Source: a virus
Lineage: Duplodnaviria; Caudoviricetes
Virus record (IMG/VR): IMGVR_UViG_3300033067_001005
Coordinates: 11,545 to 75,544 of that record
Length of the DNA stretch: 64,000 bases
Strand: one strand, 5' to 3'
Below, in pieces: positions 1,538 to 22,613 of this stretch (within the stretch, counting starts at the first letter, position 1; every line of letters starts with the position of its first letter). The position numbers and the translations under genes were made by a program. The notes under the pieces are model-generated. The model saw only the letters and a program-made list of their open reading frames with translations, was not told the origin of the DNA and did not search any database.

Positions 1538-1780
1538 ATGAAGAAGTTCCTAGGTACGTTCGACGGCGGTGGCGGCGGTGGCGGCGGTGGTGGCGGGGGC
1601 GCTGGCGCTACCCGTCCGACGGGTCGTCAGCCTGCTGGCCGTCCTACCGGCCGTCAGCCCGGCATCCTTCAGCGCATCGGCAACGGTATCGTCCGTGGCG
1701 CTGGCGCTGTCAGCCGGTTCGCTGGCCGTGTCGTCGGCTCCGCTCGTCGGGGCTTTGCGGCTGGCCAGGCCGCTCGCTAA
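1538..1780 (+). CDS. small Gly/Arg-rich peptide with KKFLGTFD N-terminal motif
   Basis: strong SD (AGAGGAG) before ATG; 12-Gly run, RPTGRQP twice, cationic amphipathic C-terminus; N-terminus identical over 8 aa to the scaffold N-terminus. Confidence 0.7.
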   Translation: MKKFLGTFDGGGGGGGGGGGGAGATRPTGRQPAGRPTGRQPGILQRIGNGIVRGAGAVSRFAGRVVGSARRGFAAGQAAR

Positions 1781-1805
1781 TCTCTAACGACTAAGGGTTT
1801 CTTTT

Positions 1806-1838
1806 CCTGGTTGTCACCCGCACTCCTCTACAACCAGG
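1806..1838. promoter_or_regulatory. inverted repeat (9-bp stem, 15-nt loop) between the peptide gene and the prp-like gene
   Basis: CCTGGTTGT (1806-1814) is the reverse complement of ACAACCAGG (1830-1838). Confidence 0.45.
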
Positions 1839-1851
1839 CCCCCTAACTCCC

Positions 1852-2211
1852 ATGATCAAATGCAAGACCTCTAAAGACGGTGATTGGATCACCTTTAGCG
1901 TTAGCGGACACTCAGAAGACACGGGCGACGAAGAGCGCTTTCAAGTCTGTGCCGGAGTCTCTACGCTAGCTGTGGGCCTTCTAGCACTAACAACTAACGT
2001 CGGTAGCAGAGCCAAGCGACTACAGCACGCAGACGGCCACGTTCTAATCGACATCCCAGCATCCGATGAGGCAATGCTCTCGTCGTTGAAGTTCGTCAAG
2101 TACGCGCTAAGGGTGCTGTATTCTGGCTATAGCGAGCATCTAGAGCTTGATTTCGCAGACGACGTACCGGAGTACGCGCCTTGGCCGAGCCCAGATCCCA
2201 CGTTGGCGTAG
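1852..2211 (+). CDS. prp: Prp-family (YsxB/DUF464, ribosomal-processing type) cysteine protease
   Basis: FSVSGHS...QVCAGVSTL matches the Prp catalytic GH...VCAxVS signature; ~110 aa size and C-terminal L..L...Y.EH pattern fit the family. Confidence 0.8.
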   Translation: MIKCKTSKDGDWITFSVSGHSEDTGDEERFQVCAGVSTLAVGLLALTTNVGSRAKRLQHADGHVLIDIPASDEAMLSSLKFVKYALRVLYSGYSEHLELDFADDVPEYAPWPSPDPTLA

Positions 2212-3818
2212 CTGGTAGCTGCCCCCTAGATACGGAGAAGCTGACGGACCTAATCCTGGCGTTCGTCGTCCTCTTCAACGAGCCTATGGGGATCCACCTG
2301 TACAGGTATCAACGCCTGTTCATGCGTGAGATCATCCACAGCCTACTAGACCATAACGGTGCGACGCTGACAGGGCTTTGGAGCCGGCAGAGCGGGAAGA
2401 GCGAGGCTCTTTCTAGTCTCGCGCCGGCTCTTTGTGTTTTCCTACCTGCCTTGGCTAAAGCCTTCCCCGGCGACCCAAGACTAACGGACTACACAGAGGG
2501 CTTCTGGGTAGGCATCTTCGCTCCGCGATTGGACCAGAGCGGAATCATCTACGGTCGTATTAGAAGCAAGGCGGAGAAGCCTAGCTCTCTAGCGCTGTAC
2601 CAGGATAACGACATCGGGATTCAGCTCACGCAGAGCCGAGGAGACCAAGTCTCTTGGAGCAACGGGAGCTTCGTCGCGTCTCAAACTGCCAGCGAGCAGA
2701 GCAGCGTTGAGGGTAAGACCTATCACCTCGTGATTCTAGACGAGGCGCAGCTAATCAGCCGGACCAAGGTCAACAAAGAAATCGCCCCGATGTTGGCCGC
2801 TACCAACGGCCTAATGGTGAAGATTGGCACTGCCAGCTTCTATAAGGGCGGCTTTCACGACTCCATCGTCTACAACCTGTCCTACGAGAAGAAGACAGGT
2901 AGGCGCTACCACTTCGAGTTCCCGTACGACGTCGTAATAGAAGAGAAGCGACGCACGTACGAAGAGACGAAGAAGCCCTTCCACCTGAACTACGAAGCCT
3001 GGGTCTCTACTGAGCTAGCTAAGCTCGGCGGGAACAAAGACAACGAAGAGTTCAGGATGAACTTCCGCCTGATGTGGTTCGAGGCCAACACGGGCGCGAT
3101 CGACCGCGATGCCTTCTATGACGCGGCAATTGAGACTCTAGAGGCGAATCAACCCACCTTTAGAGGAGACCTCGTTGCTGGTCTGGACTACGGAAAGAAG
3201 CACGACGCAACCATCCTGACGATCATGTCGGTCAATCCGAAGGAAATCGTCGACACTAGGGCTATGATTCGTCCTGGCGACGACATCCCTGTCTACCACG
3301 AGAAGACCATCATCGCTTGGTTTGAGCTAGAGGGAAGGCGCTGGAAAGAGATCCAGGGCAAGGTCGTTGCCGCTCTCTCCGAATACGCCGTTCACACACT
3401 AGTAGCTGACTCAACTGGCGTGGGAGACCCACTAACAGAGCAGCTACAAGACCTGATTCCCAGCATTAGAGTCATTCCGTTCGTTCTGTCAGCGCAGGGC
3501 AATGACCTGATGTACAAGCTCTATATCCAAGAGATGGAAGCGGGGCGTCTAAAGTACGCTGCCGGACCAGACACAGCTGCAACGAAGGTCTATAAGAACT
3601 TCGTACACGAACATGAGCAGTTGCAAAAACTGCGGAACAACCTCTATATCAAGTGCTGTGCCCCGGAAGGGGAACACGACGACTACCCAGACTCGGCCGC
3701 ACTTTGCTGCTATGCTGCAACGGTCCCTAGGGAATCGTTCATCGAACAGACTCAAAGCCCGTTCAAGTCGCGTCGTAGCAATGCTGCTGGGCGCTCTCGG
3801 TCAGATAGATACAGATAG
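2181..3818 (+). CDS. terL: terminase large subunit
   Basis: Walker A SRQSGKS, Walker B VILDEAQ, nuclease motifs AGLDYGKKHD, DSTGVG and HDDYPDS; TTG start uncertain. Confidence 0.93.
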   Translation: MAEPRSHVGVAGSCPLDTEKLTDLILAFVVLFNEPMGIHLYRYQRLFMREIIHSLLDHNGATLTGLWSRQSGKSEALSSLAPALCVFLPALAKAFPGDPRLTDYTEGFWVGIFAPRLDQSGIIYGRIRSKAEKPSSLALYQDNDIGIQLTQSRGDQVSWSNGSFVASQTASEQSSVEGKTYHLVILDEAQLISRTKVNKEIAPMLAATNGLMVKIGTASFYKGGFHDSIVYNLSYEKKTGRRYHFEFPYDVVIEEKRRTYEETKKPFHLNYEAWVSTELAKLGGNKDNEEFRMNFRLMWFEANTGAIDRDAFYDAAIETLEANQPTFRGDLVAGLDYGKKHDATILTIMSVNPKEIVDTRAMIRPGDDIPVYHEKTIIAWFELEGRRWKEIQGKVVAALSEYAVHTLVADSTGVGDPLTEQLQDLIPSIRVIPFVLSAQGNDLMYKLYIQEMEAGRLKYAAGPDTAATKVYKNFVHEHEQLQKLRNNLYIKCCAPEGEHDDYPDSAALCCYAATVPRESFIEQTQSPFKSRRSNAAGRSRSDRYR

Positions 3819-3828
3819 GGAGACTCCA

Positions 3829-4278
3829 ATGAAGATTTCCGCGCAAGAAGCCATGATGTTCGGTGGACCCAAGGCCGCCGCTGTGTGCGTGGGCCGCATC
3901 GAAAAGGTAGTCAGCCTTCAGGCTGTAGCTGCTACCCTGGCTGCATCCGTCATCTGGGTAGCTGACTTCAAGGGGAAGATCAGCGACGCGCAGTTCGTGT
4001 CGGCTGTTACCCCCGCGGCCGGCGAGAGCATGGTTCTCTCCGTTCTAAAGAACGGCGTTACCATGATGAGCGCCAACGTCACTGTGGACAACACCGTCGC
4101 GGCGAAGAAGAAGTGGGATATCTGGGCCAACCTGGACAAGGCCAAGAACTTCTTCAATGAGGGTGACATCATCACCTTCACCCGCACCTACGTTCCTGGT
4201 GGTACTCCTGCCATGACGGCCACTAACCTCGTCCTAGAGATGGTTGCCGAGGACATCAACGCGGCAAGAGCTATCTAA
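3829..4278 (+). CDS. putative virion beta-sandwich/decoration protein
   Basis: ATG 3829 after GGGAG; LSVLKNG...GDIITF pattern seen in small phage structural proteins. Confidence 0.5.
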   Translation: MKISAQEAMMFGGPKAAAVCVGRIEKVVSLQAVAATLAASVIWVADFKGKISDAQFVSAVTPAAGESMVLSVLKNGVTMMSANVTVDNTVAAKKKWDIWANLDKAKNFFNEGDIITFTRTYVPGGTPAMTATNLVLEMVAEDINAARAI

Positions 4279-4514
4279 TGAGCATTAGAGCCAAATTCCG
4301 TTGCACCTCTGTAGTGAAGTACCCCACTGGCGACGGGGAGACCGTGAGGCTGGGCGCTGTTCACGGAGGAGCCAGCGACGCTAACAAGTCATGGTCGAAG
4401 TTCACTCCGAGCGGAGACCTTCGGCTTCACATCACTAATCCCGAGGCTGAAGGTAAGTTCGTGCCTGGGAACTACTACTTCCTAGACTTCACCGAAACGG
4501 ACAAGGACGGCTAA
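4278..4514 (+). CDS. conserved phage hypothetical protein
   Basis: 78 aa with N.SWSKFTPSG.L.L.I.N...F..G.YY.DF pattern recurrent in phage proteins; TAATG coupling at both ends. Confidence 0.65.
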   Translation: MSIRAKFRCTSVVKYPTGDGETVRLGAVHGGASDANKSWSKFTPSGDLRLHITNPEAEGKFVPGNYYFLDFTETDKDG

Positions 4515-4828
4515 TGCGGAAGAACCTGAATGGCTCCGCTAAGAAGGGGGCCTTCGAGTTTGGGACCAAGAGCGGCAAGCCGGGAGAGCTACCCGCTGTT
4601 CGTCCCTTGATTGGTGCCTTCTACGAGCTGGCTGACGCGAAGCCGCAAGGCAGCCTGGACGAGACGTTTGCAGCCGGTGCTGACGGCGCCTCTTCTAATG
4701 CAATCGCGACCAAGGGCGCAGAGATGCGCAACTTGAACAAGCCAGAAGTAGAGCTGATTGCAGTAGGCAACCCTGGGGAGACCTACCGTGATGAACGAAA
4801 GCGGACCGGGACTGCTAAGATCCCGTGA
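4514..4828 (+). CDS. hypothetical protein
   Basis: coupled ORF (TAATG), 104 aa. Confidence 0.55.
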   Translation: MRKNLNGSAKKGAFEFGTKSGKPGELPAVRPLIGAFYELADAKPQGSLDETFAAGADGASSNAIATKGAEMRNLNKPEVELIAVGNPGETYRDERKRTGTAKIP

Positions 4829-5261
4829 CCGAAACCCCGTTTTCGTTCGCTATTTCGGCCAACTAGTCAGCCCGCGTCTGTATAGGCGCGGGTTTGGCTT
4901 TGTGGGCTTTCTCATCTGGCTCGTCGACCTACTGCGATTCTTTCTAGAGAGATGGCTGGTGTTCACCATCCTGAAGCTAGAGATGAGACGAGCAGGCGCT
5001 ACGAGACGCGAGGTCCAAGAGGCCGTAGAACAAGCCAAGCTGGACGTGAGTACTGGCGGAAACGTCGCTACTACCGTTGGCCAGCCCAAAGAGCGCGGAG
5101 ACCGCTACAAGCTAGGGCGGGCTGTAGAGCTGAGACCGACCCCAATCAGCTCTCAGAGTGACCTAGCCAAAACGATCGCCGCTGCTGCTGCTCCCAGGAG
5201 CAGAGAGCTACGCTACTTTAGAGGTAGACAACTTCTAATTCAGGAGGACAACAATGAATGA
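4791..5261 (+). CDS. hypothetical membrane protein
   Basis: hydrophobic segment GFGFVGFLIWLVDLLRFF; SD GGAG upstream. Confidence 0.5.
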   Translation: MNESGPGLLRSRDRNPVFVRYFGQLVSPRLYRRGFGFVGFLIWLVDLLRFFLERWLVFTILKLEMRRAGATRREVQEAVEQAKLDVSTGGNVATTVGQPKERGDRYKLGRAVELRPTPISSQSDLAKTIAAAAAPRSRELRYFRGRQLLIQEDNNE

Positions 5262-5412
5262 AGTAGTGCCTACCCCGCCTCCGTCTAACGTCCCGACTTC
5301 ACCGTCCGAGGACAAGCGGAAAAGCAATTACAAGAACGTACAGGTCGACTTCTCTGTCGGCACTGGGATGCAGCGCGGATTGCCCGTGCTGATCCCTAAG
5401 AAAGAGAAGTAA
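5254..5412 (+). CDS. small hypothetical protein (52 aa, not in the ORF track)
   Basis: read by hand: AGGAGG SD, ATG 5254, MNEVVPTPPP...PKKEK, TAA overlapping ATG 5412. Confidence 0.6.
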   Translation: MNEVVPTPPPSNVPTSPSEDKRKSNYKNVQVDFSVGTGMQRGLPVLIPKKEK

Positions 5413-5906
5413 TGACATCAGAGCTGCAATCAGCCCTGTCCTCAATAGGAGCCACCGTCGGCCTAATCACCTTCGTTCTGTTCGTTCTAGAGAAGTCTAA
5501 GAACAGCGGAAAGCAGGAGACCAAGCAAGAGAACTCGGTAGAAAAGGCCTCACTAGAGCGACAGATGGCTGACAACCTTCTGGAATCCAAGTTCCAAGCT
5601 TTAGGGCACGACCTGAAACTGGCTATTGCCACTTCGGATGTTCGTTCTGATGAGCGAGGAAAGAGGCTGCAAGAACAGGTAGTGGACATGCACAAGTCCA
5701 TCGCCGCTTTGACTGCGGACATGTCCAACCAGGCAAAGGCGCAGATCATTACGGATGAAAAGCTGTCTACGGTCACGAAGAAGCAGGACGAGACCGAAGC
5801 CCAGCTGGACAAGCTGTCTAATGAAGTGCAATCGCTCGGAAAGCAAATGTCCAAGATAGAGAACAGACTGTCTGGGCATTACTCGAAAACAGATCCCAGC
5901 AAGTAA
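5412..5906 (+). CDS. N-terminally membrane-anchored coiled-coil protein
   Basis: single TM (IGATVGLITFVLFVL) followed by heptad-like coiled coil. Confidence 0.6.
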   Translation: MTSELQSALSSIGATVGLITFVLFVLEKSKNSGKQETKQENSVEKASLERQMADNLLESKFQALGHDLKLAIATSDVRSDERGKRLQEQVVDMHKSIAALTADMSNQAKAQIITDEKLSTVTKKQDETEAQLDKLSNEVQSLGKQMSKIENRLSGHYSKTDPSK

Positions 5907-5916
5907 GGGGTAACTA

Positions 5917-7524
5917 ATGGCCGGCTCATCGATGCAGTTCTTGGCACTACAGGGCGGAAGCGGGACAGCAATCCCGTTTGCCAGAGAGACGGAGCCCAGT
6001 GCTATTGCCACCGTAGCTATGAGCCCCAAGGACTCGCAGCGTCTTCGGCGGTACGAGGAACACTGGCGCTTCTACCAGGGGCGACACTGGAACTTTGACC
6101 GTGAGGATGGCGAGCCTCTAGTTACCTCTAACTACTGTCGCGCAATCGTTCACAAGAAAGCTGCCTGGCTTGTAGGGAAGGGCATGGTGCTCGACACCCC
6201 GCAGGCCTTGCAGCACGTGACGAAGCCAAAGCTCGTAGAGACGTGGAAGTACAATAACGAGCAGATTCTCCTGTGGAAGCTAGCCGTAACTGGCGGCGTC
6301 ACTGGAGACTGCGTTGTACTGGTCACCGTGAAGGAACCGACGGGCGTAGAGCGCCGCTTCAACCCGAACACGGGCGGGCGCATCCACTTGCGGCTTGTAA
6401 TGCCACACCAGTACTTCCCGCGCTACAACCCCCTCAATAACGAAGAGCTAATCGGCGTCCGCATCATTACTGAGGTGGATGCTCCCGCTCCCGTAGAGAG
6501 GGTGGGGATGCGTGGCACTGGCAGGACCGTCGTCCCTCGTAAGCGCCGCTACGTGGAAGACATCACGGCGGAGAAGATTGTAGAGGGGTACGAAGATGGG
6601 CAGATGACCGAGAAGCCGAACGTACTGGGAGAGATCCCCGTCGTTCACTGGGTCAACCTACCGTTCCCCGGCGAAGTCTTCGGACAATCGGACCTAGACG
6701 GCGCAATCGACCTACAGCGTGAGCTGAACGAGAAGTTGACCGACCTCTCGGACATCATCAACTATCACGCGGCGCCAATCACCATCGTGACGGGTGCAAA
6801 GGCTAAGGCACTAGAGAAGGACGCCCGCAACATGTGGACGGGCCTTCCTGCTGACGCCAAGGTGTACAACCTCGAGCTGGGAAGCTCCGGGGACACTAAC
6901 TACAGGTACGTCGAGCTTGTGCGCAAGATGCTGCTAGAGCTTGCCAGCGTTCCTGAGGTAGCCCTGGGTGGCATCATCGCCATCTCCAATACGGCAGCCG
7001 CGGCACTAGAGGTGCAATTCCAGCCTCTGACGGAAGCCATCGACCAGAAGCGGCCGAACTATGAGCAGGGCCTAGAGCGCGTGAACTATCTGATTCTGCG
7101 CTGGTGGCAGACCATGGAGAAGTTCAACCTCCCCGTCGACCTCTGTAAGGAATGCGGCGGAAGGATTCTGACCTTCCAGGTCAAGACCAAGGATGGCAAG
7201 CAGCGCACGATGCGCAAATGCTACCTAATCGACCCGCAGACTCTAGAGTTCATGGAGCCTGACGATGTCCGCGTTAACGTAAAGCGCGAATACTCGTTCG
7301 GCACCGAGACTCGGATGATGCCCTACGGCCAGGTAAAGAAGGAGTTCTTGCAGCGCTCCGCCTCCTACTGGGACCCCATGCCCAGAATCGATAAGGTCGA
7401 AGAGGAGCAAAGCAAGCTAGACATGGCGGAGCAGAAGAAGGAAGAAGCCGCTAAAGAGCAAATTGCGGCAGCTGGTTATGACCCTGAGCAGCTGGCGGCT
7501 GCGGAGAAGCCAGGAGAAGAATAA
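5917..7524 (+). CDS. portal protein, SPP1 gp6-like, N-terminal part plus a C-terminal extension
   Basis: RFYQGRH, NYCRAIV, G.IPVVH..N, GQSDL..IDLQ..N, P.VALG..SN.AAL motifs; the usual crown segment is missing and is found in 8535..9179. Confidence 0.88.
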   Translation: MAGSSMQFLALQGGSGTAIPFARETEPSAIATVAMSPKDSQRLRRYEEHWRFYQGRHWNFDREDGEPLVTSNYCRAIVHKKAAWLVGKGMVLDTPQALQHVTKPKLVETWKYNNEQILLWKLAVTGGVTGDCVVLVTVKEPTGVERRFNPNTGGRIHLRLVMPHQYFPRYNPLNNEELIGVRIITEVDAPAPVERVGMRGTGRTVVPRKRRYVEDITAEKIVEGYEDGQMTEKPNVLGEIPVVHWVNLPFPGEVFGQSDLDGAIDLQRELNEKLTDLSDIINYHAAPITIVTGAKAKALEKDARNMWTGLPADAKVYNLELGSSGDTNYRYVELVRKMLLELASVPEVALGGIIAISNTAAAALEVQFQPLTEAIDQKRPNYEQGLERVNYLILRWWQTMEKFNLPVDLCKECGGRILTFQVKTKDGKQRTMRKCYLIDPQTLEFMEPDDVRVNVKREYSFGTETRMMPYGQVKKEFLQRSASYWDPMPRIDKVEEEQSKLDMAEQKKEEAAKEQIAAAGYDPEQLAAAEKPGEE

Positions 7525-7922
7525 TGGGAATCTTCGCTAGTATCGCAGCCAAGCTAGGCCTAGGCGGCTCAGGAAACGCTGCTACACCAAAGGGCGTTAC
7601 TGTCGGCGCTAGAGGCGGGAAGTACTACCTAGATGCTAACGGCAAAAAGGTGTACGGAGACCCTACCAAGGTGAAAGCCAAGGCCGCCGCGGCGCAGAAA
7701 GAGGCCCTACCAAGCAAACAGAAGGACAAGGCCGACGCGCACACGACCAAGGCTTTCGCTGCCTCTAGTAAGGCAAAGGACGCCGCTTCGCACAAGGCAG
7801 CTGCTGACGCGCACAAGATCGCAGCGGAGCATCACAGCAAGATAAACACTAAGTACTCCAAGATGAAGGCCAAGCACCACAGAGAGATGGTGGCCGAGCA
7901 CAGCAAGAAAGCGAAGGGCTAG
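7524..7922 (+). CDS. basic Lys/Ala/His-rich protein with G.RGG.YY...GKKVYG motif
   Basis: GARGGKYYLDANGKKVYG; helical H..AA.AH repeats; coupled to portal by TAATG. Confidence 0.7.
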   Translation: MGIFASIAAKLGLGGSGNAATPKGVTVGARGGKYYLDANGKKVYGDPTKVKAKAAAAQKEALPSKQKDKADAHTTKAFAASSKAKDAASHKAAADAHKIAAEHHSKINTKYSKMKAKHHREMVAEHSKKAKG

Positions 7923-7926
7923 AACC

Positions 7927-8535
7927 ATGGGCGTGTACGGAAAGCTCGCAGAAAAGTTAGGCGTCAGTGGTGGAGGCTCTAAAGGAACCCAGACTGGGCC
8001 CCGAGGCGGAAGATACTATCTGGATGCCAGCGGGAAGAAGGTTTATGGAGAGCCACCCAAAGGCTCTTCTGGTTCTAAGGCCAAGAACAAGGCAGCTGAC
8101 GACCCCGTAGCCATGGCTAAGAAGTTTAGTAGTCAGGCTCATTCCGCTTCCTCCGCTGCATACGATCCTAATTCCCACCATATGGCAGGAAAGGCACATC
8201 TTCTAGCTGCACACCTACAAGGCAAAGCGGGTGACAAGGCAGCTCAGGCCAAGCACCTAGATGCAGCCGAGGCACATGGCGACAAGTCTGCTGCTAATCT
8301 TCCAGCTGGCTACGTAAGCCAAATCAAAGCTGAAGCAGTAATGGCTAAAGCTGAATTGACCGGCAAGAAGATGAAGGGCTCCGGTGACATCATCACTAAG
8401 GGAGCCATGTCTGGGCATCTTTACCACGGAGAGTTGGAAGGAAAGCATGTCTACTCTCGCTCTCTGGAGGGGGGACGTGGCATGGGCCATACAGCTGACT
8501 CCGCCTACAAGTTTTCCGATAAGAAGGTCCACTAA
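7927..8535 (+). CDS. paralog of 7524..7922, basic protein with GPRGGRYY motif
   Basis: GPRGGRYYLDASGKKVYG; similar N-terminus and His/Ala-rich helices. Confidence 0.7.
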   Translation: MGVYGKLAEKLGVSGGGSKGTQTGPRGGRYYLDASGKKVYGEPPKGSSGSKAKNKAADDPVAMAKKFSSQAHSASSAAYDPNSHHMAGKAHLLAAHLQGKAGDKAAQAKHLDAAEAHGDKSAANLPAGYVSQIKAEAVMAKAELTGKKMKGSGDIITKGAMSGHLYHGELEGKHVYSRSLEGGRGMGHTADSAYKFSDKKVH

Positions 8536-9179
8536 TGGCACTCTTTCTAATTCCAAGCGTCTCAAAGCTCCTCGGGGCAAAGGACAAGCCCAAGGGCGAG
8601 ACACCCGAGCCTGAGACCGGGGAAGCTAATGCAAAGCCCGGTCAGCTCGTTGCCCACGACATCGACATCCCGGAGGAGCCGGAAGAGGTCAACGCCGTCG
8701 TTCAGGAATGGGACAACGAGAAGAACCAGTTCGTCGAGCGCAACCTAGGCAAGCGTCTTCTCGTGCCAACAGGCTGCGAAAGGCCCACGTACTTTTCCCC
8801 GTTCGAGAACTCGGTTACGCTGAAGAGCGCCCTACCGCGTGACAAGGAAAAGGACACTAACCTGTACCAAGCCTGGCAGACTAATGGCTGGGTAAGCAGA
8901 CACTGGGTCATGAGCCGTCTAGAAGAGGGCATCTCTATCTCGCAGATGGACAAGGAAATCGCGGACGATATCCCGTTCATTCTCTCTATTCAGGGAAAGC
9001 CTGACCCCTCTGGCCAGGTTGCCCAGACAAACGGACTTCAACAGCCCGGTGACGGGCCTGGCGACAACAACGGAGCGCCGCTACCCCCCGGACCAGGCCC
9101 TGGCCGCGGGAACAAGTTCGCTCCTGGCGATGGCCTAGCAAAGGCCCCACCCAACGCTTCACCGGGAAGGAAGATGTGA
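8535..9179 (+). CDS. portal protein C-terminal (wing/crown) part encoded as a separate ORF
   Basis: ENSVTLKSALPRD...QTNGWVSRHWVMSRL...EIADD matches the SPP1-type portal C-terminal V.F..LP.D...G.iS pattern, followed by a Pro/Gly tail. Confidence 0.7.
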   Translation: MALFLIPSVSKLLGAKDKPKGETPEPETGEANAKPGQLVAHDIDIPEEPEEVNAVVQEWDNEKNQFVERNLGKRLLVPTGCERPTYFSPFENSVTLKSALPRDKEKDTNLYQAWQTNGWVSRHWVMSRLEEGISISQMDKEIADDIPFILSIQGKPDPSGQVAQTNGLQQPGDGPGDNNGAPLPPGPGPGRGNKFAPGDGLAKAPPNASPGRKM

Positions 9180-9180
9180 G

Positions 9181-14255: not shown

Positions 14256-14308
14256 CGGGACGATCCTTGGCAATCAAGCTAAGGACTCCCTAGCTAGGAG
14301 AAGACACG

Positions 14309-14551
14309 ATGGCGTACGACAGCACTAGTGGTAAGCGGATTCCCGCTACCCGCACCAAGATGGACAATGCGTCCCCGTCTCCTGCGCAGTCGCAGGGCGA
14401 GACCGGCGGCGCCGTAGGCAGCTCCTACTCGGCTACTCTAGTGGAGTATCCGAACAAGAGCCTGAACAACGTGGGCCCCGACGGCCAGGATCCGATGCTG
14501 AAGTTCCCGGCCGGTGTAGGCCAGGGCATCCGCAAGACGGGCCGCATCTAA
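14309..14551 (+). CDS. small hypothetical head-module protein
   Basis: SD AGGAG; 80 aa. Confidence 0.6.
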   Translation: MAYDSTSGKRIPATRTKMDNASPSPAQSQGETGGAVGSSYSATLVEYPNKSLNNVGPDGQDPMLKFPAGVGQGIRKTGRI

Positions 14552-14582
14552 CATCACTAACTGCTAGCGGCAGGAGTTACTA

Positions 14583-15692
14583 ATGAGAAACCTTCGTAAG
14601 AAGTTCCTGGGGACGTTCGATGAAAAGGCGGCTCCTGCCGCTGGTGAGCAAGGGGCGCCTGGGGGACAACCTCCGGCGCCTTCTGCGCCTGTAGACATTC
14701 AAGCCATCGCTAGTGCGGCAGCTGCGGCAGCTTCGGCTCAGACCGTAGAGAGGCTTCGCAAGTCGGCTGAAGATGAGGCCGCGGAAGAGGCTAGAGCGGC
14801 AGAGGAAGCTCGGCTCGCGGAAGAGGCCAGCCAGTCTCTAGAGGCTCACCGTCGCCACACCGATAGACAGGTAGAGGCGATTCGTGCGGAGCTTATGGCT
14901 ACACAGGCTGCTCTAAAGGCCTCGCAGCTTCAGACCTATAAGACGGAGCGGATCTCTCAGGTGAGAGCGGCCGGCGTAGGTATCGTCGTAGAACTCGTCA
15001 CTGGGAACAGTGAGGCGGAGATCGAGCAGTCGATTCAGCACGCTGCTAATGTGTACGCCACCTACCAGAAGCAGATCATGGCCGCGCAGACTCCGGCAGT
15101 ACCTGCCGCCGCGGCTGCTCCGGGGATTCCCCAAGCAGTAGTGCCCCCTCCCCCGGCAGCTGCCCCGCCTGCACCGGGGACGCTCACTCCCAGCGCTCCC
15201 ACGGCGGAGAACGCCCAAGTGTTTGACGCCGAGACCCTTGCCTACCTAACCTCCCCCGAGGCGGCAAGAAACGGCGATTACCAGAAGTACCGCCCTCTAA
15301 TTCATGCCCAGCTTCAGAGCAAGTTCTCTGGAGGCACTCCTACCTCTAATGTTCGTTCTACTTTGCAGCACCCCCAGGTACTGGCTCAGCGAGGAGCACC
15401 CGGCACGCCGGCCCCTCCGATGCCTGTTCAGAGAGGGGATATGCCAGGCGGCGTGAGAGTACCTATCGTTCAGGTAGGCCCGCCCCCGATGAACGCGCAG
15501 CCGCAACCAGGGACTAATCCCCGCTTCGGTGCGCCTCCCGCAGCTCAGGGCGCCCCACAGCCCGCAGAGCTGGATGCAGCATACAATCGGGGTCTAGTAC
15601 CAACGCTGGACCTGGAAGCCATTCGAGCCCGAGCACAAGCGGCTGCTGACAAGTACCGCCCTGCTCCTGCTCAACCCGTAGTGACTAACTGA
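14583..15692 (+). CDS. capsid scaffolding protein
   Basis: Ala/Glu/Pro-rich coiled coil directly upstream of the major capsid gene; N-terminal RKKFLGTFD. Confidence 0.8.
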   Translation: MRNLRKKFLGTFDEKAAPAAGEQGAPGGQPPAPSAPVDIQAIASAAAAAASAQTVERLRKSAEDEAAEEARAAEEARLAEEASQSLEAHRRHTDRQVEAIRAELMATQAALKASQLQTYKTERISQVRAAGVGIVVELVTGNSEAEIEQSIQHAANVYATYQKQIMAAQTPAVPAAAAAPGIPQAVVPPPPAAAPPAPGTLTPSAPTAENAQVFDAETLAYLTSPEAARNGDYQKYRPLIHAQLQSKFSGGTPTSNVRSTLQHPQVLAQRGAPGTPAPPMPVQRGDMPGGVRVPIVQVGPPPMNAQPQPGTNPRFGAPPAAQGAPQPAELDAAYNRGLVPTLDLEAIRARAQAAADKYRPAPAQPVVTN

Positions 15693-15708
15693 GGTAGGAG
15701 GCTAATCA

Positions 15709-16686
15709 ATGTCGTCGATGACTTCGGCCGTAAACAGCGGCCCCGGATTCTCGCAGCTGGTTGCTGCTGTTCGTGATGTGTACTCACAGGAGATCTACTT
15801 CTCCGCGATGCCGAACCTGCGCTTCGACCAGTTCGCCACTAGAAAGGACGAACTCACTGGCCAGCCTGGTGCGACTATCGTCCTTCCCAAGATGGGGACG
15901 ATCAAGCGTGGTGGCACCCTCACTGAGGGCGTCCGCATCCAGGGTAAGTCGATGAGCATGTCGACCACCACGATCACCGTGGCTGAGAAGGGTAACGCCA
16001 TCCTCATGACCGAGCGTCTTCTACAGACCTCGTTCTATGACAACATGGCTGCCGCCTCGATGCTCCTAGGGCGAGACTTCGCTCTAGTGAATGACACGGA
16101 CCTTCGTGACATCGCGCTCACCGCGACTAACAAGGTCTACGCCGGCAAGAAGGCCGCTCGTACGGACCTCGTTGGTGGTGACACCGCCGATACGACGTTC
16201 CTCATGGACATCGGGGAGAAGCTGGAGATCAACTCCTCGCCGAAATGGGGTAATGACTTCTACGTCAGCTTCTTCCACCCGCATGGACTAGCGAAGCTCC
16301 GTCAGAGCGTCGGCTGGGTCAACGCGGCGCACTACCAGGGCGCTACCCCGCTCTTCTACGGTGAGGCTGGCCGCTGGAACGACATCCGGTTCGTCAGCAC
16401 CTCTATGATGCCGAACGGCTTCAACAGCGCTCTGAACGACGCTGGCGAGTTCGCGGACCCCGGCTACGTCGCTGCTCTAGCGAATGGCACGGCCGGCAAC
16501 CAGACCACCATCTACCAGTGCGTCACCTTCGGCGAATACAGCTACGGCCAGGGCAACGCTCTGAACGTCGAGCTTCGCGACAACGGTGTCCAGGACTACG
16601 GCCGTGAGCACGGCCTCGCCTGGTACGCCATCTGGGGCCAGGGCCTCCTAGAGAACAACAACCTCGTCGTCGGCGAGCACGCCTAA
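15709..16686 (+). CDS. major capsid protein (N4-gp56-like, HK97 fold)
   Basis: RFDQFA...QPGATI...LTEG, E.GNA...T, G..G.WNDIRFV and YGR.HGLAWY motifs; highly biased codon usage. Confidence 0.9.
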   Translation: MSSMTSAVNSGPGFSQLVAAVRDVYSQEIYFSAMPNLRFDQFATRKDELTGQPGATIVLPKMGTIKRGGTLTEGVRIQGKSMSMSTTTITVAEKGNAILMTERLLQTSFYDNMAAASMLLGRDFALVNDTDLRDIALTATNKVYAGKKAARTDLVGGDTADTTFLMDIGEKLEINSSPKWGNDFYVSFFHPHGLAKLRQSVGWVNAAHYQGATPLFYGEAGRWNDIRFVSTSMMPNGFNSALNDAGEFADPGYVAALANGTAGNQTTIYQCVTFGEYSYGQGNALNVELRDNGVQDYGREHGLAWYAIWGQGLLENNNLVVGEHA

Positions 16687-16720
16687 TCCCTTCTAGGGTA
16701 GGTTCAGGAGAAGCAAGAAC

Positions 16721-17128
16721 ATGAGACTCATCGCTCTAATGGCCGTAGCGGCCACGTTTCACGCCAAGTACCTCGACACGTTCGTTGCCCGTACGGCTTC
16801 CAACGTGCAAGAGCTGCCGCCGGGGTACAACGACGAGAACCGTCGTCTCTTCCAGGCCGACCTCACCACGGACGTGACCGCGGCGGACACGATCGACGTG
16901 ACCCTCCCGGCCAACCTTCGCGCCGTCGGCGTTCAGGTTCTAGGGGCCTTCTTCGAGAAGTGGACCACCTCTTCTGCGATCGGCGCGAGAACTAAGACGC
17001 GCATTCCCGTAGTGGTCACCAGCTACGTCGAGGCAACCGGCGTCGTGACCCTCACCACCTCTACCGTCAACCTGTCGATCGCTACTGAGTCCGGGCGCGT
17101 CTTCCTAGAAGTCTGCCCGTACAAGTAA
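16721..17128 (+). CDS. putative capsid decoration protein with KYLDTF motif
   Basis: follows the capsid gene, same biased codon usage, beta-rich. Confidence 0.6.
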   Translation: MRLIALMAVAATFHAKYLDTFVARTASNVQELPPGYNDENRRLFQADLTTDVTAADTIDVTLPANLRAVGVQVLGAFFEKWTTSSAIGARTKTRIPVVVTSYVEATGVVTLTTSTVNLSIATESGRVFLEVCPYK

Positions 17129-17142
17129 GGAGCTGAACTCTA

Positions 17143-17451
17143 ATGGCTAAGAAAGACGAAACCAAGGCTCCCGAGACGGCCGAAACCAAGGCTCCCGAGG
17201 TAACGGAGGAAGACCTGGCTAAGGCAGCTGCACAGGCTGCTCTAGAGTCGGCAAAGGAAGCCACCGTCTCTGCTCCGGCAGAAGCCCCTGCTCCTACCAT
17301 CTCTGTGGGTGACGTAGAGGTCATCGCTCTTCGGGACGGCGCGGCTTCCATGGGTGGCCGTAACTATTCGTGGAAGAAGGATCAGCTCGTGGAGATGCAT
17401 GCATCGCACGCTCTAGAGCTGGAACAGGCGGGCTGGGTCCGCCGGATCTGA
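17143..17451 (+). CDS. small head-module protein with acidic Ala-rich N-terminus
   Basis: SD AGGAG; ETKAPE duplicated. Confidence 0.6.
   Translation: MAKKDETKAPETAETKAPEVTEEDLAKAAAQAALESAKEATVSAPAEAPAPTISVGDVEVIALRDGAASMGGRNYSWKKDQLVEMHASHALELEQAGWVRRI
17157..17199 (+). repeat. 19-nt direct repeat, 24-nt period
   Basis: CGAAACCAAGGCTCCCGAG at 17157 and 17181. Confidence 0.8.
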
Positions 17452-17461
17452 GGAGGCGACC

Positions 17462-18952
17462 GTGGCAGGCAGCGTGAAAGGCTCTCTAGTAACATCACTG
17501 CGTTCTAGACTAAGCGACGAGCGACCCTCGTCGATAGCCCTCACGCTGTCTGCTTCCGGTTGTAAAAGCGCCGTAGCTGACATTAGCAACGGCTTTCTGA
17601 ACATCTCGATTACTGGCGGAACAGGACCTATCAAGTCCGTTCGCTTTGACCTAGACCTTCCCAAGTACTCTACTGTGGGAAGACTAATCTCCGAGCTATC
17701 GTCTGCACCTGGAATCAAGGTAGACGCCGGAGACGCTTCTGATAGGGAATTCCCCTCTTCTGAGCTTGTAATGGACGGGATGCCGGAGATCGGGCCTCAA
17801 GGTAAGGCCACCGCCCTGCGCCACTACATGTTCTCGGACAGAGAACTGGCTAGCTTCCTGGAAGAAGCCTGTCAGGTTCATAATCCCAACTACGCTCCGT
17901 CCAACGTACCCATCGCCGAACACCCCTACGTGGTGAAGAAGGCGGCTGCGGCTGCCTACCGTGCGCTGGCTGCTAATGCGGCAAAGAGACGTGGTCTAGA
18001 GATGGACGTAGACTCGTGCCTGAAGCTGGCGCGAGACCTAGAGGACCAATACGCTAAAGACTTGAAGGTGCAGCTTCGCGCTGTGCCCGTCCCCAAGGTG
18101 GACGACTCCTATGTTGGCTCCGGCCACATCATGGAGGGGAAGCTTTTCCGGCGCTCCCTACGCACTGGTCTGCCCTCTAGCATCAAGCTGGGTGGAGACC
18201 TGCCCGCCCCCGACCTGTTCAATCCGGCGGATGACGACGTAGAGGACGTGTTCGTTAGACTGCGGTGGAACATCAACAAAGACGATCGCTTCATGCGATA
18301 CGAGCTTTGGAGAGATACCCTGCCCGAGGTAGAGCGGAGCCTGGGAGGCACTCTAGACGCTTCCTACGTGAGCCCTAGCCTTCCAGAGAACACGCAGTAC
18401 TCCAAGCCGAGCACCTCTAAGCAGGTGCTAATCATCTACGGAAGCGCGCGGACCACCATCTTCGCTGAGAACAAGGATACGATGGTCACATCATCCTTCG
18501 TCGACGGCCAGACTGGAGACCGCACCTACGGGAACGCGCGGACCATCGGAGAGCCTCTAGAGTCTGAGATGGACTACTACTACCGGCTGTACAGCGTCTC
18601 CAGAACTGGAGAGGTCGTCGGCTCGGAAGTCATCCACGTGAAGACGAAGAAGCAGCGTGGCCTGTTCAAGCGCACGAGCGCCGGTCTCCTGGACCCAACG
18701 GGCTTTTCTGTCGCCTCCGGCCCTCTCGCGGGCGGAACGACCGTTACGATTACTGGAACGGGATTCGAGGCAGGGGTAACCGTCACCATCGGCGGAAAGC
18801 TCGCAACTATCGTCTCCGTCAATAGCACTACTATCGTGCTGACGACCCCAGCCTTTAGCAACAGGTCGTTCATCGGGAAGCCGCTGGACATCATCGTGAC
18901 GAGTCCTAACGGCCTGAAGGACATCGCCAAGGCTGCCTGGGCTTACACATGA
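17462..18952 (+). CDS. head-tail connector/neck protein with Fn3-like and IPT/TIG domains
   Basis: FSDREL..FL adaptor-like segment; VRLRW...RYELWRD...YYYRLYSV (Fn3-like); GP.AGGT.VTITGTGF...V.IGG (IPT/TIG). Confidence 0.65.
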   Translation: MAGSVKGSLVTSLRSRLSDERPSSIALTLSASGCKSAVADISNGFLNISITGGTGPIKSVRFDLDLPKYSTVGRLISELSSAPGIKVDAGDASDREFPSSELVMDGMPEIGPQGKATALRHYMFSDRELASFLEEACQVHNPNYAPSNVPIAEHPYVVKKAAAAAYRALAANAAKRRGLEMDVDSCLKLARDLEDQYAKDLKVQLRAVPVPKVDDSYVGSGHIMEGKLFRRSLRTGLPSSIKLGGDLPAPDLFNPADDDVEDVFVRLRWNINKDDRFMRYELWRDTLPEVERSLGGTLDASYVSPSLPENTQYSKPSTSKQVLIIYGSARTTIFAENKDTMVTSSFVDGQTGDRTYGNARTIGEPLESEMDYYYRLYSVSRTGEVVGSEVIHVKTKKQRGLFKRTSAGLLDPTGFSVASGPLAGGTTVTITGTGFEAGVTVTIGGKLATIVSVNSTTIVLTTPAFSNRSFIGKPLDIIVTSPNGLKDIAKAAWAYT

Positions 18953-19365
18953 TACAAGTCAAATTCAGAGCCTCTAACGACCTTGTAGAAACGGCACACC
19001 TCAGGCTCGCGGTCGTAGCTGACCGTGAGCTTCGTCGTTTCGCCGATGCTAAAGTCAAATGGCTAAAGGCCTTCATCCTTAGCAACATGGTGCATCCGCA
19101 CAAGCTGCATGACGATGGGAAGCCCACGCTGTTCGACTCCGGCAAGTACCTTAGAGGCATCAAGGCTACCGTCGAAAACGGGAACCTAGAGATAAAGCCT
19201 ACTGGGAACAATGACCACATGAGCAACGAGGCACTCGGTGAGCTACTAGAATGGGGCGCCAAAGGCTACCCGGCTAGACCGCACTGGCGCATCCTCGGAC
19301 TCGAGGTCAACAACTCCCTAGAGGCACTGGGAAGAGACATCTTCAAGGCGCTACTGGAGAGCTAA
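18949..19365 (+). CDS. neck/tail completion protein (HK97 gp10-like)
   Basis: TL.DSG.Y...I and LEWG...YPARPHW motifs. Confidence 0.6.
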   Translation: MIQVKFRASNDLVETAHLRLAVVADRELRRFADAKVKWLKAFILSNMVHPHKLHDDGKPTLFDSGKYLRGIKATVENGNLEIKPTGNNDHMSNEALGELLEWGAKGYPARPHWRILGLEVNNSLEALGRDIFKALLES

Positions 19366-20096
19366 TGGCCTACATCGGTATCCTAGAAGCCTTTAGAGCT
19401 AGACTGGAAGGCCAGGACCCGAAGTACGTACCTCGGCTGCCTTCTACTCCGCTGAAGGATGACCCTCGCATCGCTGCCGAAGTCGACGGAGGGGCTGTAG
19501 CCGGCGGAGCAGGCTCCACGGTCAACGTGAATGGGCTCACCATCAACATCGCAGATGATGACGACAGCGGGCAATGGAGTGTAGAGCTGTGGCCAATGAT
19601 TACGTACAGGGTCGTGGCCAACAACCCCCGCTACAACGAATGGATTTCTAATACAGACCCAGAGCAGGGTATCGGCGACGGCTACCAGATCCCCATAGAG
19701 ACCTCTTCGCAGGAACTCAAAGAAGGGAAGTTCAGCCTGGGAAGCAGCCCTCGCCTCTTCAAGACCCGCCCTGTCGAGATTCCCATAGACTTCCTCGTTG
19801 AAGTCAAACTAATGGCCAACAACAACATCACGTCGGCCCTCCTCGTTGACTACGTCTACAGAGTTCTACCTCCACGAAGCTTCATCCGCGTGCCGATGAA
19901 GGACGGTACGTTCGCCTCTTGGGACCTTGATATGCAAGACTTCAAGGACCTGGATGTACGGTCGGCTGTGCTCTCTGGCAATGCCGAGAAGGAATACGCT
20001 AAGGTCTTCACGTACCGTGTCGAGGGCTACCTAGACAACACAGACCTAGCGAAAATTAGCAGCCGCGTTAGAAAGGTTTCCATCAACGTAACCTGA
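19365..20096 (+). CDS. putative tail terminator
   Basis: position before sheath; WPMITY and FTYRVEGYLD patterns. Confidence 0.55.
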   Translation: MAYIGILEAFRARLEGQDPKYVPRLPSTPLKDDPRIAAEVDGGAVAGGAGSTVNVNGLTINIADDDDSGQWSVELWPMITYRVVANNPRYNEWISNTDPEQGIGDGYQIPIETSSQELKEGKFSLGSSPRLFKTRPVEIPIDFLVEVKLMANNNITSALLVDYVYRVLPPRSFIRVPMKDGTFASWDLDMQDFKDLDVRSAVLSGNAEKEYAKVFTYRVEGYLDNTDLAKISSRVRKVSINVT

Positions 20097-20105
20097 GAGG
20101 ACGAC

Positions 20106-20330
20106 ATGCCTACCATTAGAAGCAACTACAGCCGTTACGTAGAAGTCCATCTGGAGACTGAGTGCGTCACTCTCAATCCAGGTGACTCCCATTCGTTTAC
20201 GGGGCCTGTGACGCCCCACCTACAGGAGCTAATTGCTTCTAATATGGTTACGCTGGTTCAAGATGAGCCCGAAGCGGAGCCTGTTCCCATCACCAAGCCC
20301 GGCGTTCACGCTGAAGAGGAGAGTGTCTAA
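20106..20330 (+). CDS. small tail-module hypothetical protein
   Basis: SD GAGG; coupled to sheath. Confidence 0.55.
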   Translation: MPTIRSNYSRYVEVHLETECVTLNPGDSHSFTGPVTPHLQELIASNMVTLVQDEPEAEPVPITKPGVHAEEESV

Positions 20331-22081
20331 TGGCTACTGAGAACTTCGACGCACCTGGCGTAAGCGCCAGAGTCGGAAGAGCTGCCGTCCCCGTAATCCA
20401 GGCCTCGCCTGTGAGCATCGGCGGGTTCATCATGTACGCAACGAAGGGTCCGCACGACAAGGCCGTCCGCGTCGACAGCTTCGCCAAGTTCGTCCGCATC
20501 TTCGGCTCCTATGACACGAACACGTACGGGCCTGATGCGGTCCGCGCGTTCTTCGACAACGGGGGCAGAGCCTGCTGGATCGTCCGCATCACTAGAAGCG
20601 GCGGCTCCGGTTCCAACGTGAAGGCCACCTTCACCCTTCAGAGCGCAGCGCTTGCTAACACGATGGTCTGCACGGCTGTCGGCTACGGCGTGTCCGGCAA
20701 CGGCATGAAGGTAGTGGCGGCGAAGGAAGACACCAAACTGGGACTAATCGGAGCTGTAACGGCTACTGGTGCGCAGACCGTCATCAACTGCTCGTCTGCC
20801 ATTGCTGCCAAGCTACGCGTGGGTGACCAGATCGCCATCACGGAAGGCACTACGCAGCGCGGCATCGTCTCGCGCATCGACGACACCAAGATCATCCTAG
20901 TAGCGTCTGTGACTGTCCCCGCGGGCGGCTACAATACGACTACGACGATCATCACTAAGGAAACCTTCTCCATTACGGTGTATGACCAGGGCGTTGTCGT
21001 CGCTGGTCCTTATCGTAACCTGGCGATGTCCAGCCTAAGCCTGAAGGACTACTTCCTAACGCGGCTGAACACGACGGATGACGAGAACCCGGTAACGTTC
21101 ACTGACTCTGGCCTCTCCATGGCTGGCGGCGTGGATACTCGCCCCGTCAATACCGTTTCCGGCGGCGACATGCTCGTAGGTGGCTCTGAGATGACCCAAT
21201 CGGCTGATGCCGATTACAAGGGCTCTTCGGCTACGTCTACCGGCGTCTATGCCTTCGACAAGGTTGCCTCTGGGCAGGTCAACATCCTCGCCATTCCGGG
21301 CGTAACTGGCACCAGCGGCGCCGTCTCCAAGGCTCTAGTGGAATACTGTGCTGGCAGAGAAGACGTTCACTGCGTCATCTCTCCTGCACTGGCTACTGCG
21401 GTATCCGCGGCTGTCACGTACAAGCAGGACAATATCGGAGCCTACCGCTTCGGCGCGATGTACTACCCCTGGGTGCAGATCCTGGACCCGATCAGCGGGC
21501 AGCCTGCTTACGTGCCGCCGGACGGCTACGTCATGGGTCTGTACGCTCGTACGGATAGAAAGCGCGGCGTACAGAAGGCTCCTGCTGGCGAGGCAGAGGC
21601 TCTAGTAGGTACCATCGGTGTGGAGAGAAAGCTCTCTAGAGATGACCGTGGCACCCTCTACACGGTCAACATCAACCCCATCGAAGACATTGCCGGCAAG
21701 GGGCAATGCGTCATGGGAAGCCGCACTCTGGAGAAGGGCCTGTACGGACAGGTCTCCGTCTCTAGAACGTATACCTACCTGGCTGTGACGCTTCGTGAAG
21801 GCACCCGCTGGGTCATCTTCGAGCCGAACAACGAGGACACCCGCGCTCGCTTGCGCCGGTCCGTCTCCGACTACCTAGAGCGCGAATGGAGAAAGAACCT
21901 TCTAAACGGTGATACCGTTGACCAGGCGTTCTACTGCATCTGCGATGCCAGCAACAACCCCGATGTCATCGTCAAGGCCCAGCAGATGGTTGCCGATGTC
22001 GGTGTGAACGTGCCGGACGTCACCGAGAACCTAGTAATCAACATCAGCCAGGACCAGCGCGGTTCTAGCGCTGCGGCCTAA
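20330..22081 (+). CDS. tail sheath protein
   Basis: APGVS, F...FG, AFFDNGG..CWIVR, YYPW, PP.G...G.YAR.D..RGV.KAPA, WVIFEPN motifs. Confidence 0.95.
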   Translation: MATENFDAPGVSARVGRAAVPVIQASPVSIGGFIMYATKGPHDKAVRVDSFAKFVRIFGSYDTNTYGPDAVRAFFDNGGRACWIVRITRSGGSGSNVKATFTLQSAALANTMVCTAVGYGVSGNGMKVVAAKEDTKLGLIGAVTATGAQTVINCSSAIAAKLRVGDQIAITEGTTQRGIVSRIDDTKIILVASVTVPAGGYNTTTTIITKETFSITVYDQGVVVAGPYRNLAMSSLSLKDYFLTRLNTTDDENPVTFTDSGLSMAGGVDTRPVNTVSGGDMLVGGSEMTQSADADYKGSSATSTGVYAFDKVASGQVNILAIPGVTGTSGAVSKALVEYCAGREDVHCVISPALATAVSAAVTYKQDNIGAYRFGAMYYPWVQILDPISGQPAYVPPDGYVMGLYARTDRKRGVQKAPAGEAEALVGTIGVERKLSRDDRGTLYTVNINPIEDIAGKGQCVMGSRTLEKGLYGQVSVSRTYTYLAVTLREGTRWVIFEPNNEDTRARLRRSVSDYLEREWRKNLLNGDTVDQAFYCICDASNNPDVIVKAQQMVADVGVNVPDVTENLVINISQDQRGSSAAA

Positions 22082-22091
22082 AGAGGACCCA

Positions 22092-22613
22092 ATGCTGCAC
22101 TCGCTTCCTGGATTCCGTGAATTTCTAGCAACGTTCGGTAGAACCTCGCAAGAGGACCCTCTAAAGACCTTCGCCTACCGCGTGGAGATTGACAACTTCG
22201 CGCGCATGGGCTTCTCCAAGGTCACCGGACTAAAGCCTAAGGTAGACGTTGTCACGTACCGTGAGGGCGGCGACAATACTACCGAGAAGAAGAGCCCCGG
22301 CATGACCAAGTGGGATGACCTCACGCTAGAGCGTGGTATTATCGTCGCCACTGGAGCCGGCGATAGAGACTTCGTCCTCTGGTTCGCGCAGGTCTACGAC
22401 GTGGGCGCGAAGAAGGTCGGAGCTAAGTCTGACTTCAGACGCAACATCGATATCGTGCTCCTCGACAGAGAGGGCAAGACCGCGAAACGTTGGCGCGTCC
22501 TGGAGGCCTGGCCTAGTGGTGGCGTACTTCTGCCCGACCTCGACGCACTGGGCAGCAACAACGCGATCGAATCGCTTACGATTACGCACGAGGGCGCTCG
22601 GGAAATCCTGTAA
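22092..22613 (+). CDS. tail tube protein (T4 gp19-like) with a 15-aa N-terminal extension ending FLATF
   Basis: DP..F.YRVEI, GFSKVTGL, YREGG, PG..K..D.TLERG, RR.I.I.L.D, W...AWP motifs. Confidence 0.93.
   Translation: MLHSLPGFREFLATFGRTSQEDPLKTFAYRVEIDNFARMGFSKVTGLKPKVDVVTYREGGDNTTEKKSPGMTKWDDLTLERGIIVATGAGDRDFVLWFAQVYDVGAKKVGAKSDFRRNIDIVLLDREGKTAKRWRVLEAWPSGGVLLPDLDALGSNNAIESLTITHEGAREIL

Follow-up and report, generated by a model that had tools for sequence, protein, structure and literature searches.

Prp is an essential ribosome-maturation enzyme of Firmicutes, a small cytoplasmic dimer that cuts the ribosomal L27 protein while ribosomes are being assembled, and one staphylococcal phage is also known to exploit it as a host factor. 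Here we describe a Prp that is encoded by a phage itself, together with a short N-terminal leader (tag) that is common to four proteins of this phage. The DNA analysed (the window, 64,000 nucleotides) comprises bases 11545-75544 of the 75,544-bp uncultivated IMG/VR virus record IMGVR_UViG_3300033067_001005, which is linear and estimated to be 83% complete. The region in question holds the packaging, head and tail genes of a phage with a contractile tail. Five genes are central to this report. Coordinates are those of the window, and a slash within a sequence marks a cleavage position, which for the phage proteins is a predicted one.

1538..1780, + strand: tagged basic micro-protein of 80 amino acids (aa); tag MKKFLGTF at nucleotides (nt) 1538-1561; predicted cut F8/D9.
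1852..2211, + strand: Prp-family cysteine protease of 119 aa (gene prp); catalytic residues His20/Cys33; PF04327.
14583..15692, + strand: putative scaffolding protein of 369 aa; tag MRNLRKKFLGTF at nt 14583-14618; predicted cut F12/D13.
16721..17128, + strand: small head-module protein of 135 aa encoded after the capsid gene (post-capsid protein); tag comprising residues 1-21 and ending in AKYLDTF, nt 16721-16783; predicted cut F21/V22.
22092..22613, + strand: tail tube protein of 173 aa, T4 gp19 family; tag MLHSLPGFREFLATF at nt 22092-22136; predicted cut F15/G16.

The open reading frame (ORF) at 1852-2211 contains the signature SGH20S...VC33AGVS, from which an initial annotation of this DNA had recognised a Prp. 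Profile comparison bears this out: PF04327 (Peptidase_Prp, MEROPS C108) matches with 33.4 bits at a cut-off of 27, covers positions 1-89 of the 90 profile positions and was confirmed on the genome record, and the ORF also matches phrog_4478 ('peptidase'). A profile built from the window Prp and its relatives matches structurally solved Prps, from S. mutans, S. pneumoniae, S. aureus and Thermotoga (2g0i, 2idl, 4peo/7kld, 1s12) with E values of 1e-7 to 1e-10. When the AF2 model of the window protein (predicted local distance difference test score, pLDDT, 83.7; predicted template modelling score, pTM, 0.79) was compared by Foldseek, ranks 1-13 were all Prp structures (1s12, 7kld, 7jvs, 2idl, 2g0j, 2g0i, 4peo), with query-normalised template modelling (TM) scores of 0.54-0.68. 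His20 and Cys33 are invariant in an alignment of five phage Prps (the window and four relatives) with two bacterial Prps and stand in a conserved GH...VC(A/S)(A/G) context, at an identity of the window Prp to the two bacterial enzymes of 20-24%. By sequence, fold and catalytic dyad the window protein is a member of the Prp family.

It has the Pfam family, the fold and the His/Cys dyad in common with bacterial Prp (YsxB, MEROPS C108), but differs in gene context and in its apparent substrates, which are phage structural proteins. The phage prp does not lie in the rplU-prp-rpmA context and no L27 gene is found in the record, whereas the bacterial controls L061 and L062 do have this gene order. 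A tblastn search of 50,697 GenBank phage records with the window Prp gave no match, and a word-based protein search returned only the query itself. A profile search of 1.84 billion protein representatives delivered a Prp subfamily of 39 clusters at E <= 1e-10. The initial annotation had also stated that no other prohead protease is evident in the head module; in agreement, profiles of the S78 (HK97 type, PF04586), S77 (T4 type, PF03420), ClpP/S14 (PF00574) and S49 (PF01343) proteases gave no match at E up to 1 in the record. Several ORFs between portal and scaffold are without a family, and no protease family was found among them.

The four tagged N-termini read MKKFLGTF/D (1538), MRNLRKKFLGTF/D (14583), ...HAKYLDTF/V (16721) and MLHSLPGFREFLATF/G (22092), at the positions originally reported. 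In the six-frame ORFs of at least 60 aa of the whole 75,544-bp record, [FY]LxTF occurs at these 4 sites only, all of them within the first 21 residues of + strand proteins. Across 106 ORFs that look like genes (24,625 aa, of which ~22,000 residues are not N-terminal), amino acid composition leads to an expectation of 0.034 N-terminal copies and of 0.33 copies in total. Seen were 4 N-terminal copies and 0 elsewhere, the latter figure answering the possibility, raised with the initial annotation, that the motif is scattered at random. The tag is absent from the capsid protein, whose N-terminus is equally well kept whether or not a relative has Prp. The assignment of 14583..15692 as scaffold, from position and composition, is putative; the protein has no Pfam or PHROG family match.

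Could the common N-termini be an artefact of wrong start codons, or of recent copying of a DNA segment, and be functionless? In high-GC (guanine plus cytosine) relatives several ORFs can be extended upstream, which makes start calls uncertain. In the window, however, each of the four tagged ORFs is preceded by a Shine-Dalgarno-like GGAG/GAGG 6-12 nt upstream, and none has an alternative start codon at the junction of tag and protein body. The two copies of KKFLGTFD differ at exactly three sites, all synonymous (CTA/CTG, GGT/GGG, GAC/GAT), as had been noted initially, and the tag recurs in more than 10 diverged genomes of this lineage of myoviruses, which encode QueC and range from 42 to 63% GC, with flanking sequence that is not conserved. 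We give practically no credence to an artefact. The synonymous-only differences, together with an alignment of eight micro-proteins in which the tag residues F4, L5 and F8 are the only invariant columns, rather point to selection on the tag at the protein level.

Relatives were collected by a capsid-protein search of viral contigs, which gave nine loci at 55-70% identity (G001-G009; the window phage itself is G000, and additional contigs are labelled L0xx and P00xx). G001, G003, G004 and G005 encode a Prp homologue directly 5' of the terminase, and each of them carries the tag on the scaffold, on the tube where covered, and on a small basic protein directly 5' of prp. The same holds for L064-L067, L149 and L150, which have prp and are tagged on micro-protein, scaffold and tube wherever these are covered. 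The scaffold carries the tag in G001, G002, G003, G004, G005 and L065 but not in G006, G007 and G008, which have no Prp, and the tube is tagged in G001, G002, G003, G005 and G009. Orthologues of the post-capsid protein are tagged in G003 and G009 and untagged in G001, G002, G005, L065 and G006/G007; G004 has a tagged ORF at this position, matched by position only. A post-terminase protein bears the tag in G003 and L066 and is without it in G000, L065 and L067, and in L067 a post-portal protein is tagged.

The gene order is unchanged in G006, G007 and G008, whose contigs include the terminase region, but they show no Prp match, and their scaffold, post-capsid and tube proteins are untagged; G008 is complete, with terminal repeats. 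A search with the phage-Prp profile found no Prp in five further large contigs with an untagged tube, one of them 92% complete. Together with G006 and G008, these make seven related contigs that lack both tag and Prp, two of which are 92-100% complete. Among wider tube relatives from viral contigs, 79 of 80 start with M-[AGS]-R-x-x-x-E-DP or similar and have no extension. The tagged one belongs to G002, the scaffold of which is tagged too (KFLGNF/N); its contig stops short of the terminase region, so that the absence of Prp is uninformative there. Across the relatives, the presence or absence of the tag tracks the presence or absence of prp, which extends to other genomes a connection that the initial annotation had drawn within one. 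Because sister phages without the protease use the same proteins without the leader, the tag would seem to be a portable add-on to proteins that function untagged.

Two further N-termini were considered. FLNTF near a protein start in G006 was rejected as a tag, since it is the conserved N-terminus of a gp25-like baseplate protein. Streptomyces phage LuckySocke, which has no prp, has an annotated scaffold (L002:19122-19967) that starts MSTPVPGTF/QQ, a faint echo of the tag that is probably due to chance; the putative scaffold of the window has no significant similarity to this protein.

Untagged orthologues allow the end of the leader to be predicted. The PF06841 match of the window tube (E 2e-33) begins at residue 26. 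When the tubes are aligned, Met1 of those that are untagged, which start M-ARxxxEDP, lies opposite Phe15 of the window protein, and ARAAVEDP lies opposite GRTSQEDP. In the alignment of post-capsid proteins, Met1 of four untagged orthologues lies opposite the last tag residue of three tagged ones, as in ...YLDTF/VARTAS, ...FLQAY/TAYTAQ and ...FLGTF/ASQSAT opposite M/ATTTAT and M/ANVNAT. Untagged Met1 thus faces the final aromatic residue of the tag, and therefore a cut after this residue would recreate the N-terminus that normal Met removal leaves in the untagged protein. The mature termini proposed in the initial annotation (DGGG, DEKA, VART and GRTS) fit this prediction, Met1 of untagged tube and post-capsid proteins being opposite the last Phe of the tag. 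Of all the evidence, this correspondence argues most strongly for removal of the leader, as opposed to mere binding.

Across genomes the tag follows the consensus [KR]-[FY]-L-x-x-F, with Thr as the usual P2 residue (positions counted from the predicted cut). The residue at P3 is variable (G, K, Q, D, A, S, E or N), and that at P1' is one of G, D, N, S, T, V, A and E, with Ala found once (G009 post-capsid protein) and Glu in one L067 tag. The pattern of L27-like leaders, Lx[LI]Q[FLH]F/A, was not found in the tag: compared with S. aureus L27 (KLNLQFF/A vs KKFLGTF/D), only P1 Phe and P4 Leu are common. Pneumococcal Prp requires P1 Phe, as L27 F12A is left uncut (bioRxiv 10.64898/2026.08.10.744006). 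S. aureus Prp requires P3 Gln and a small P1' residue, and Prps tell apart even closely similar L27 leaders, C. difficile Prp leaving the S. aureus L27 peptide uncut (PMC9261936). Since P1 Phe is kept and P1' is mostly small, the tag appears compatible with Prp chemistry, yet it is no copy of L27. The 'private' recognition code of the initial annotation holds to the extent that the tag is unlike the canonical L27 motif. Within single genomes, L065 has KFLGIF on both micro-protein and scaffold (P2 Ile on both), and L066 has P2 Asn on micro-protein (FLGNF) and post-terminase protein (FLSNF). These two cases of a common P2 residue hint at co-adaptation with the resident enzyme.

The nearest cultured relative by capsid protein is Bacillus phage BCD7 (43% identity), and among 185,579 species genomes the closest capsid proteins belong to a Thermosipho metagenome-assembled genome (MAG) and a Bacillota MAG (only 47-48% identical). 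The BCD7 genome (L001, 19048-26015) has no prp, and its leaders read ...MFMTVHA/EE on the scaffold, ...LFQNVFA/DA on the capsid and ...LFMNVHA/DS on the tube; the related element in the Thermosipho MAG has leaders ...FLNVYA/ES, ...LMNVYA/ES and ...IKSVFA/EE, and the L27 of this MAG starts MMRIDIQLF/AK and is encoded beside its prp. The ending ...NV[HYF]A/[DE] is seen in BCD7 and L041 (9142-16190). In L042 (9086-15799) the leaders read RTARA/DE, REALA/SG and RQTLA/DE, a poor fit to the host L27 site IQLF/A. BCD7-like leaders are probably substrates of host Prp, in hosts that have this enzyme. It seems that scaffold, capsid and tube are given N-terminal leaders in the wider lineage, and that the window clade differs by its own enzyme and another leader.

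It follows from such phages to ask whether a host protease, Prp or other, trims the leaders of the window clade as well, the phage Prp being redundant or processing host L27. The BCD7-like sister phages, which have no prp and yet carry leaders readable as ...NV[HYF]/A on scaffold, capsid and tube, with hosts (Bacillus cereus; Thermosipho MAG) that have Prp, would agree with this, as would the L27 leader of the Thermosipho MAG, which ends in IQLF/A, and the established use of host Prp by phage 80alpha. Within the clade, however, the tag was seen solely in phages with a prp of their own. Moreover, the tag is without the conserved P3 Gln needed by S. aureus Prp, its P1' residue is almost never the canonical Ala, and Prps are narrowly specific (PMC9261936). 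Trimming by a host enzyme is in our opinion very unlikely.

In phage 80alpha, host Prp processes the capsid protein gp47 and the scaffold gp46, according to PMC5744158 (Kizziah et al. 2017, citing Wall et al. 2015). Phage phi13 has the motif on its major tail protein (PMC5744158). The novelty assumed in the initial annotation has to be reduced in this respect, as the general scheme, Prp-tagged phage proteins including a tail protein, is already found there. 80alpha and the window phage are alike in that a Prp-family cysteine protease removes, or in the window phage is predicted to remove, a short N-terminal leader after Phe which is common to unrelated virion proteins. They differ in that the window phage encodes the protease, has a dedicated basic micro-protein as candidate substrate adjoining the protease gene, and leaves the capsid untagged, while in 80alpha both scaffold and capsid are substrates; furthermore, the window tag is FLxTF with D, G, N, S or V as the next residue, without the L27-type P3 Gln and P1' Ala.

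We consider it probable that the phage Prp recognises the [KR]-[FY]-L-x-x-F leader, cuts after its final Phe and trims 8-21 residues from at least four phage proteins. According to this model the phage would bring its own Prp-type cysteine protease (His20/Cys33), directed at the adjoining micro-protein, the scaffold, the small head-module protein and the tail tube. Family, fold, catalytic residues, tags, their conservation and co-occurrence with prp were observed; from these we infer cleavage, cut position and the purpose of the leader. Most likely, the leader would keep assembly-prone proteins inactive or escorted until Prp frees the exact mature N-terminus, in the manner of Prp on L27 and of host Prp on the capsid and scaffold of 80alpha. 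Because sister phages work with untagged proteins and without Prp, the leader may be an added control layer which delays polymerisation, aids folding or recruits a partner. As Prp is cytoplasmic, and as 80alpha procapsids from infections already hold cleaved capsid and scaffold (PMC5744158), we read the phage Prp as a leader peptidase and not as a classical prohead protease enclosed in the shell. A tagged tail tube is compatible only with a leader peptidase.

Several points weigh against the proposed cleavage. The contigs in the co-occurrence count are related to each other and are not independent events. The Prps of the relatives, although clear homologues of the window Prp with an intact dyad, score 13.9-25.2 bits when taken alone and are thus below the Pfam cut-off. 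There may be an unrecognised second protease, because no family could be assigned to many of the head-module ORFs. The phages of this group are uncultured, and cleavage is predicted from sequence. Finally, cleavage in 80alpha is dispensable for viability (PMC5744158), and for this reason binding, and not removal, could be the main role of the leader.

The last point leads to an explanation in which the leader serves mainly for targeting or chaperone binding and is either left uncleaved or cleaved only incidentally, for example as a signal that unites micro-protein and scaffold in the procapsid core, while the main target of Prp lies elsewhere, for example in a host protein. The N-terminal sequence of the 80alpha scaffold is indeed needed for assembly and its cleavage is not (PMC5744158), and in the window phage and in L065 the tags of micro-protein and scaffold are identical, as for a common binding partner. 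A binding signal does not readily account for the tag on the tail tube, which is no component of the capsid core, nor for untagged orthologues that begin exactly at the predicted cut, an observation suggesting that the extension has to go for a working N-terminus, nor for a tag seen only alongside prp. We regard a mere binding signal as unlikely and prefer removal of the leader by the phage Prp.

Leaders of this kind have counterparts in other phages. In T4, capsid-targeting sequences on internal proteins are cut by the prohead protease gp21. There a phage protease removes a short N-terminal leader from small basic internal proteins and scaffold components, but this enzyme is a serine protease, belongs to another family and works within the prohead (no PF03420 match in the window record), and the T4 tail tube protein is unprocessed. 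The maturation protease of Streptococcus phage Cp-1 is, according to PMC9405229, the other member of MEROPS clan CR. It resembles the window enzyme as a phage-encoded, Prp-related cysteine protease that removes, or in the window phage is predicted to remove, an N-terminal extension of a virion protein; in Cp-1, however, ~40 residues are taken off the capsid protein.

The least understood part of the system is the micro-protein. Downstream of its tag, the window protein consists of a Gly run and an Arg-rich tail, and the isoelectric point (pI) of the mature part is ~12. A tagged micro-protein lies directly 5' of prp in 11 of the 12 contigs that have DNA there; the exception, L068, has a different gene context. 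The proteins start MKFLKVF/GG in L064, MNKFLGIF/DGG in L065, MKFLGNF/GGG in L066, MFLGTF/NTG in L067, MKFLGMF/GGG in L149 and MKFLQTF/GGG in L150. Apart from the tag, the family is kept in composition only (Gly 15-43%, 11-21 Arg/Lys, <=5 acidic residues, pI ~12). The window protein has no Pfam, PHROG or Atlas family and is predicted to be disordered (model pLDDT 0.46); micro-proteins were always seen paired with prp. Complex prediction of the Prp dimer with micro-protein residues 1-40 gave a score of 0.60, but one control scored 0.44, and we count this result neither for nor against an interaction. As our best guess it is a polycationic protein, internal or DNA-associated, that the cut sets free, and a function as regulator or competing substrate of Prp is just as plausible.

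A wider model has the prp/micro-protein pair as a self-contained, transferable maturation module with a specificity apart from that of host L27 and Prp, allowing leader-gated assembly in hosts without Prp; as a polycationic core protein the micro-protein would condense DNA, after its leader had brought it into the head and Prp had released it, in the way the adenovirus protease acts on the core proteins pVII and Mu. We put this forward as doubtful.

In G005 (L015:1643-2206), two micro-protein units, each with ...KFLKTF/GGAST, are encoded in one uninterrupted 187-aa frame, and the fused protein may be a tandem precursor, one of its Prp sites being internal. Another member of the Prp subfamily, P0014 (L068:2776-3093), is found on a 69% GC contig beside Gp80-family and peptidoglycan-binding proteins; L068 shows no micro-protein and no obvious tags.

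In a literature search, no description of phage-encoded Prps together with their substrates was found. New are the diverged Prp subfamily of this phage lineage, the leader unlike L27, the untagged capsid, the match between presence and absence of tag and prp with the exact alignment of the cut site, and the conserved tagged micro-protein as a candidate substrate. A whole group of uncultivated myoviruses carries a diverged Prp and a matching leader on head proteins, tube and micro-protein. If the leaders are indeed cut, the timing of head assembly and of tail assembly would lie with a single small protease, this enzyme and its seven-residue tag, for which exact cuts are predicted, would be a natural system for studying the evolution of Prp specificity, and the micro-proteins would form a class of phage proteins of their own, tiny, very basic and new.

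The other identified genes of the module in the window are as follows.

759..1460, + strand: QueC (7-cyano-7-deazaguanine synthase), PF06508 E 9e-44; conserved upstream neighbour of the micro-protein/prp pair.
2181..3818, + strand: large terminase (terL), phrog_2 E 2e-18, with weak Terminase_6N and 6C matches; overlaps the 3' end of prp.
5917..7524: SPP1-type portal protein of 535 aa.
15709..16686, + strand: major capsid protein, untagged; phrog_1357 E 7e-41, Phage_capsid_3.
20330..22081, + strand: tail sheath protein, untagged; PF04984, PF17482, phrog_23.

The gene order QueC, micro-protein, prp, terL is kept in relatives, with QueC as neighbour also in L065, L066, L067, L149, L150 and the P0020 contig. 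Seven further contigs of the Prp subfamily show QueC, a small ORF, prp and terL; the sequence of the small ORF of P0020 is outside the tag count. The terminase of L065 (7873-9975) is 700 aa long and contains an intein (PF14890, Intein_splicing). Portal ORFs, of 535 aa in the window, have 544-549 aa in G004, L067 and L150 and 705-753 aa in G001, G003, G005, G006-G008 and L065. After the portal, the window encodes two paralogous basic ORFs (7524-8535) with the common motif G-x-RGG-x-YY-x-D-x-x-GKKVYG and a weak match to the PBCV basic adaptor domain (PF08789, E 0.026). In relatives (L004:2049-7956, L150:10352-10696) the G-x-RGG motif is the start of far longer proteins of 490-714 aa. The G-x-RGG proteins may be ejected or internal head proteins. 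In a search of sequencing runs, no RNA data set with the sequence was listed, and only small shares of the window sequence were found in wastewater metagenomes.

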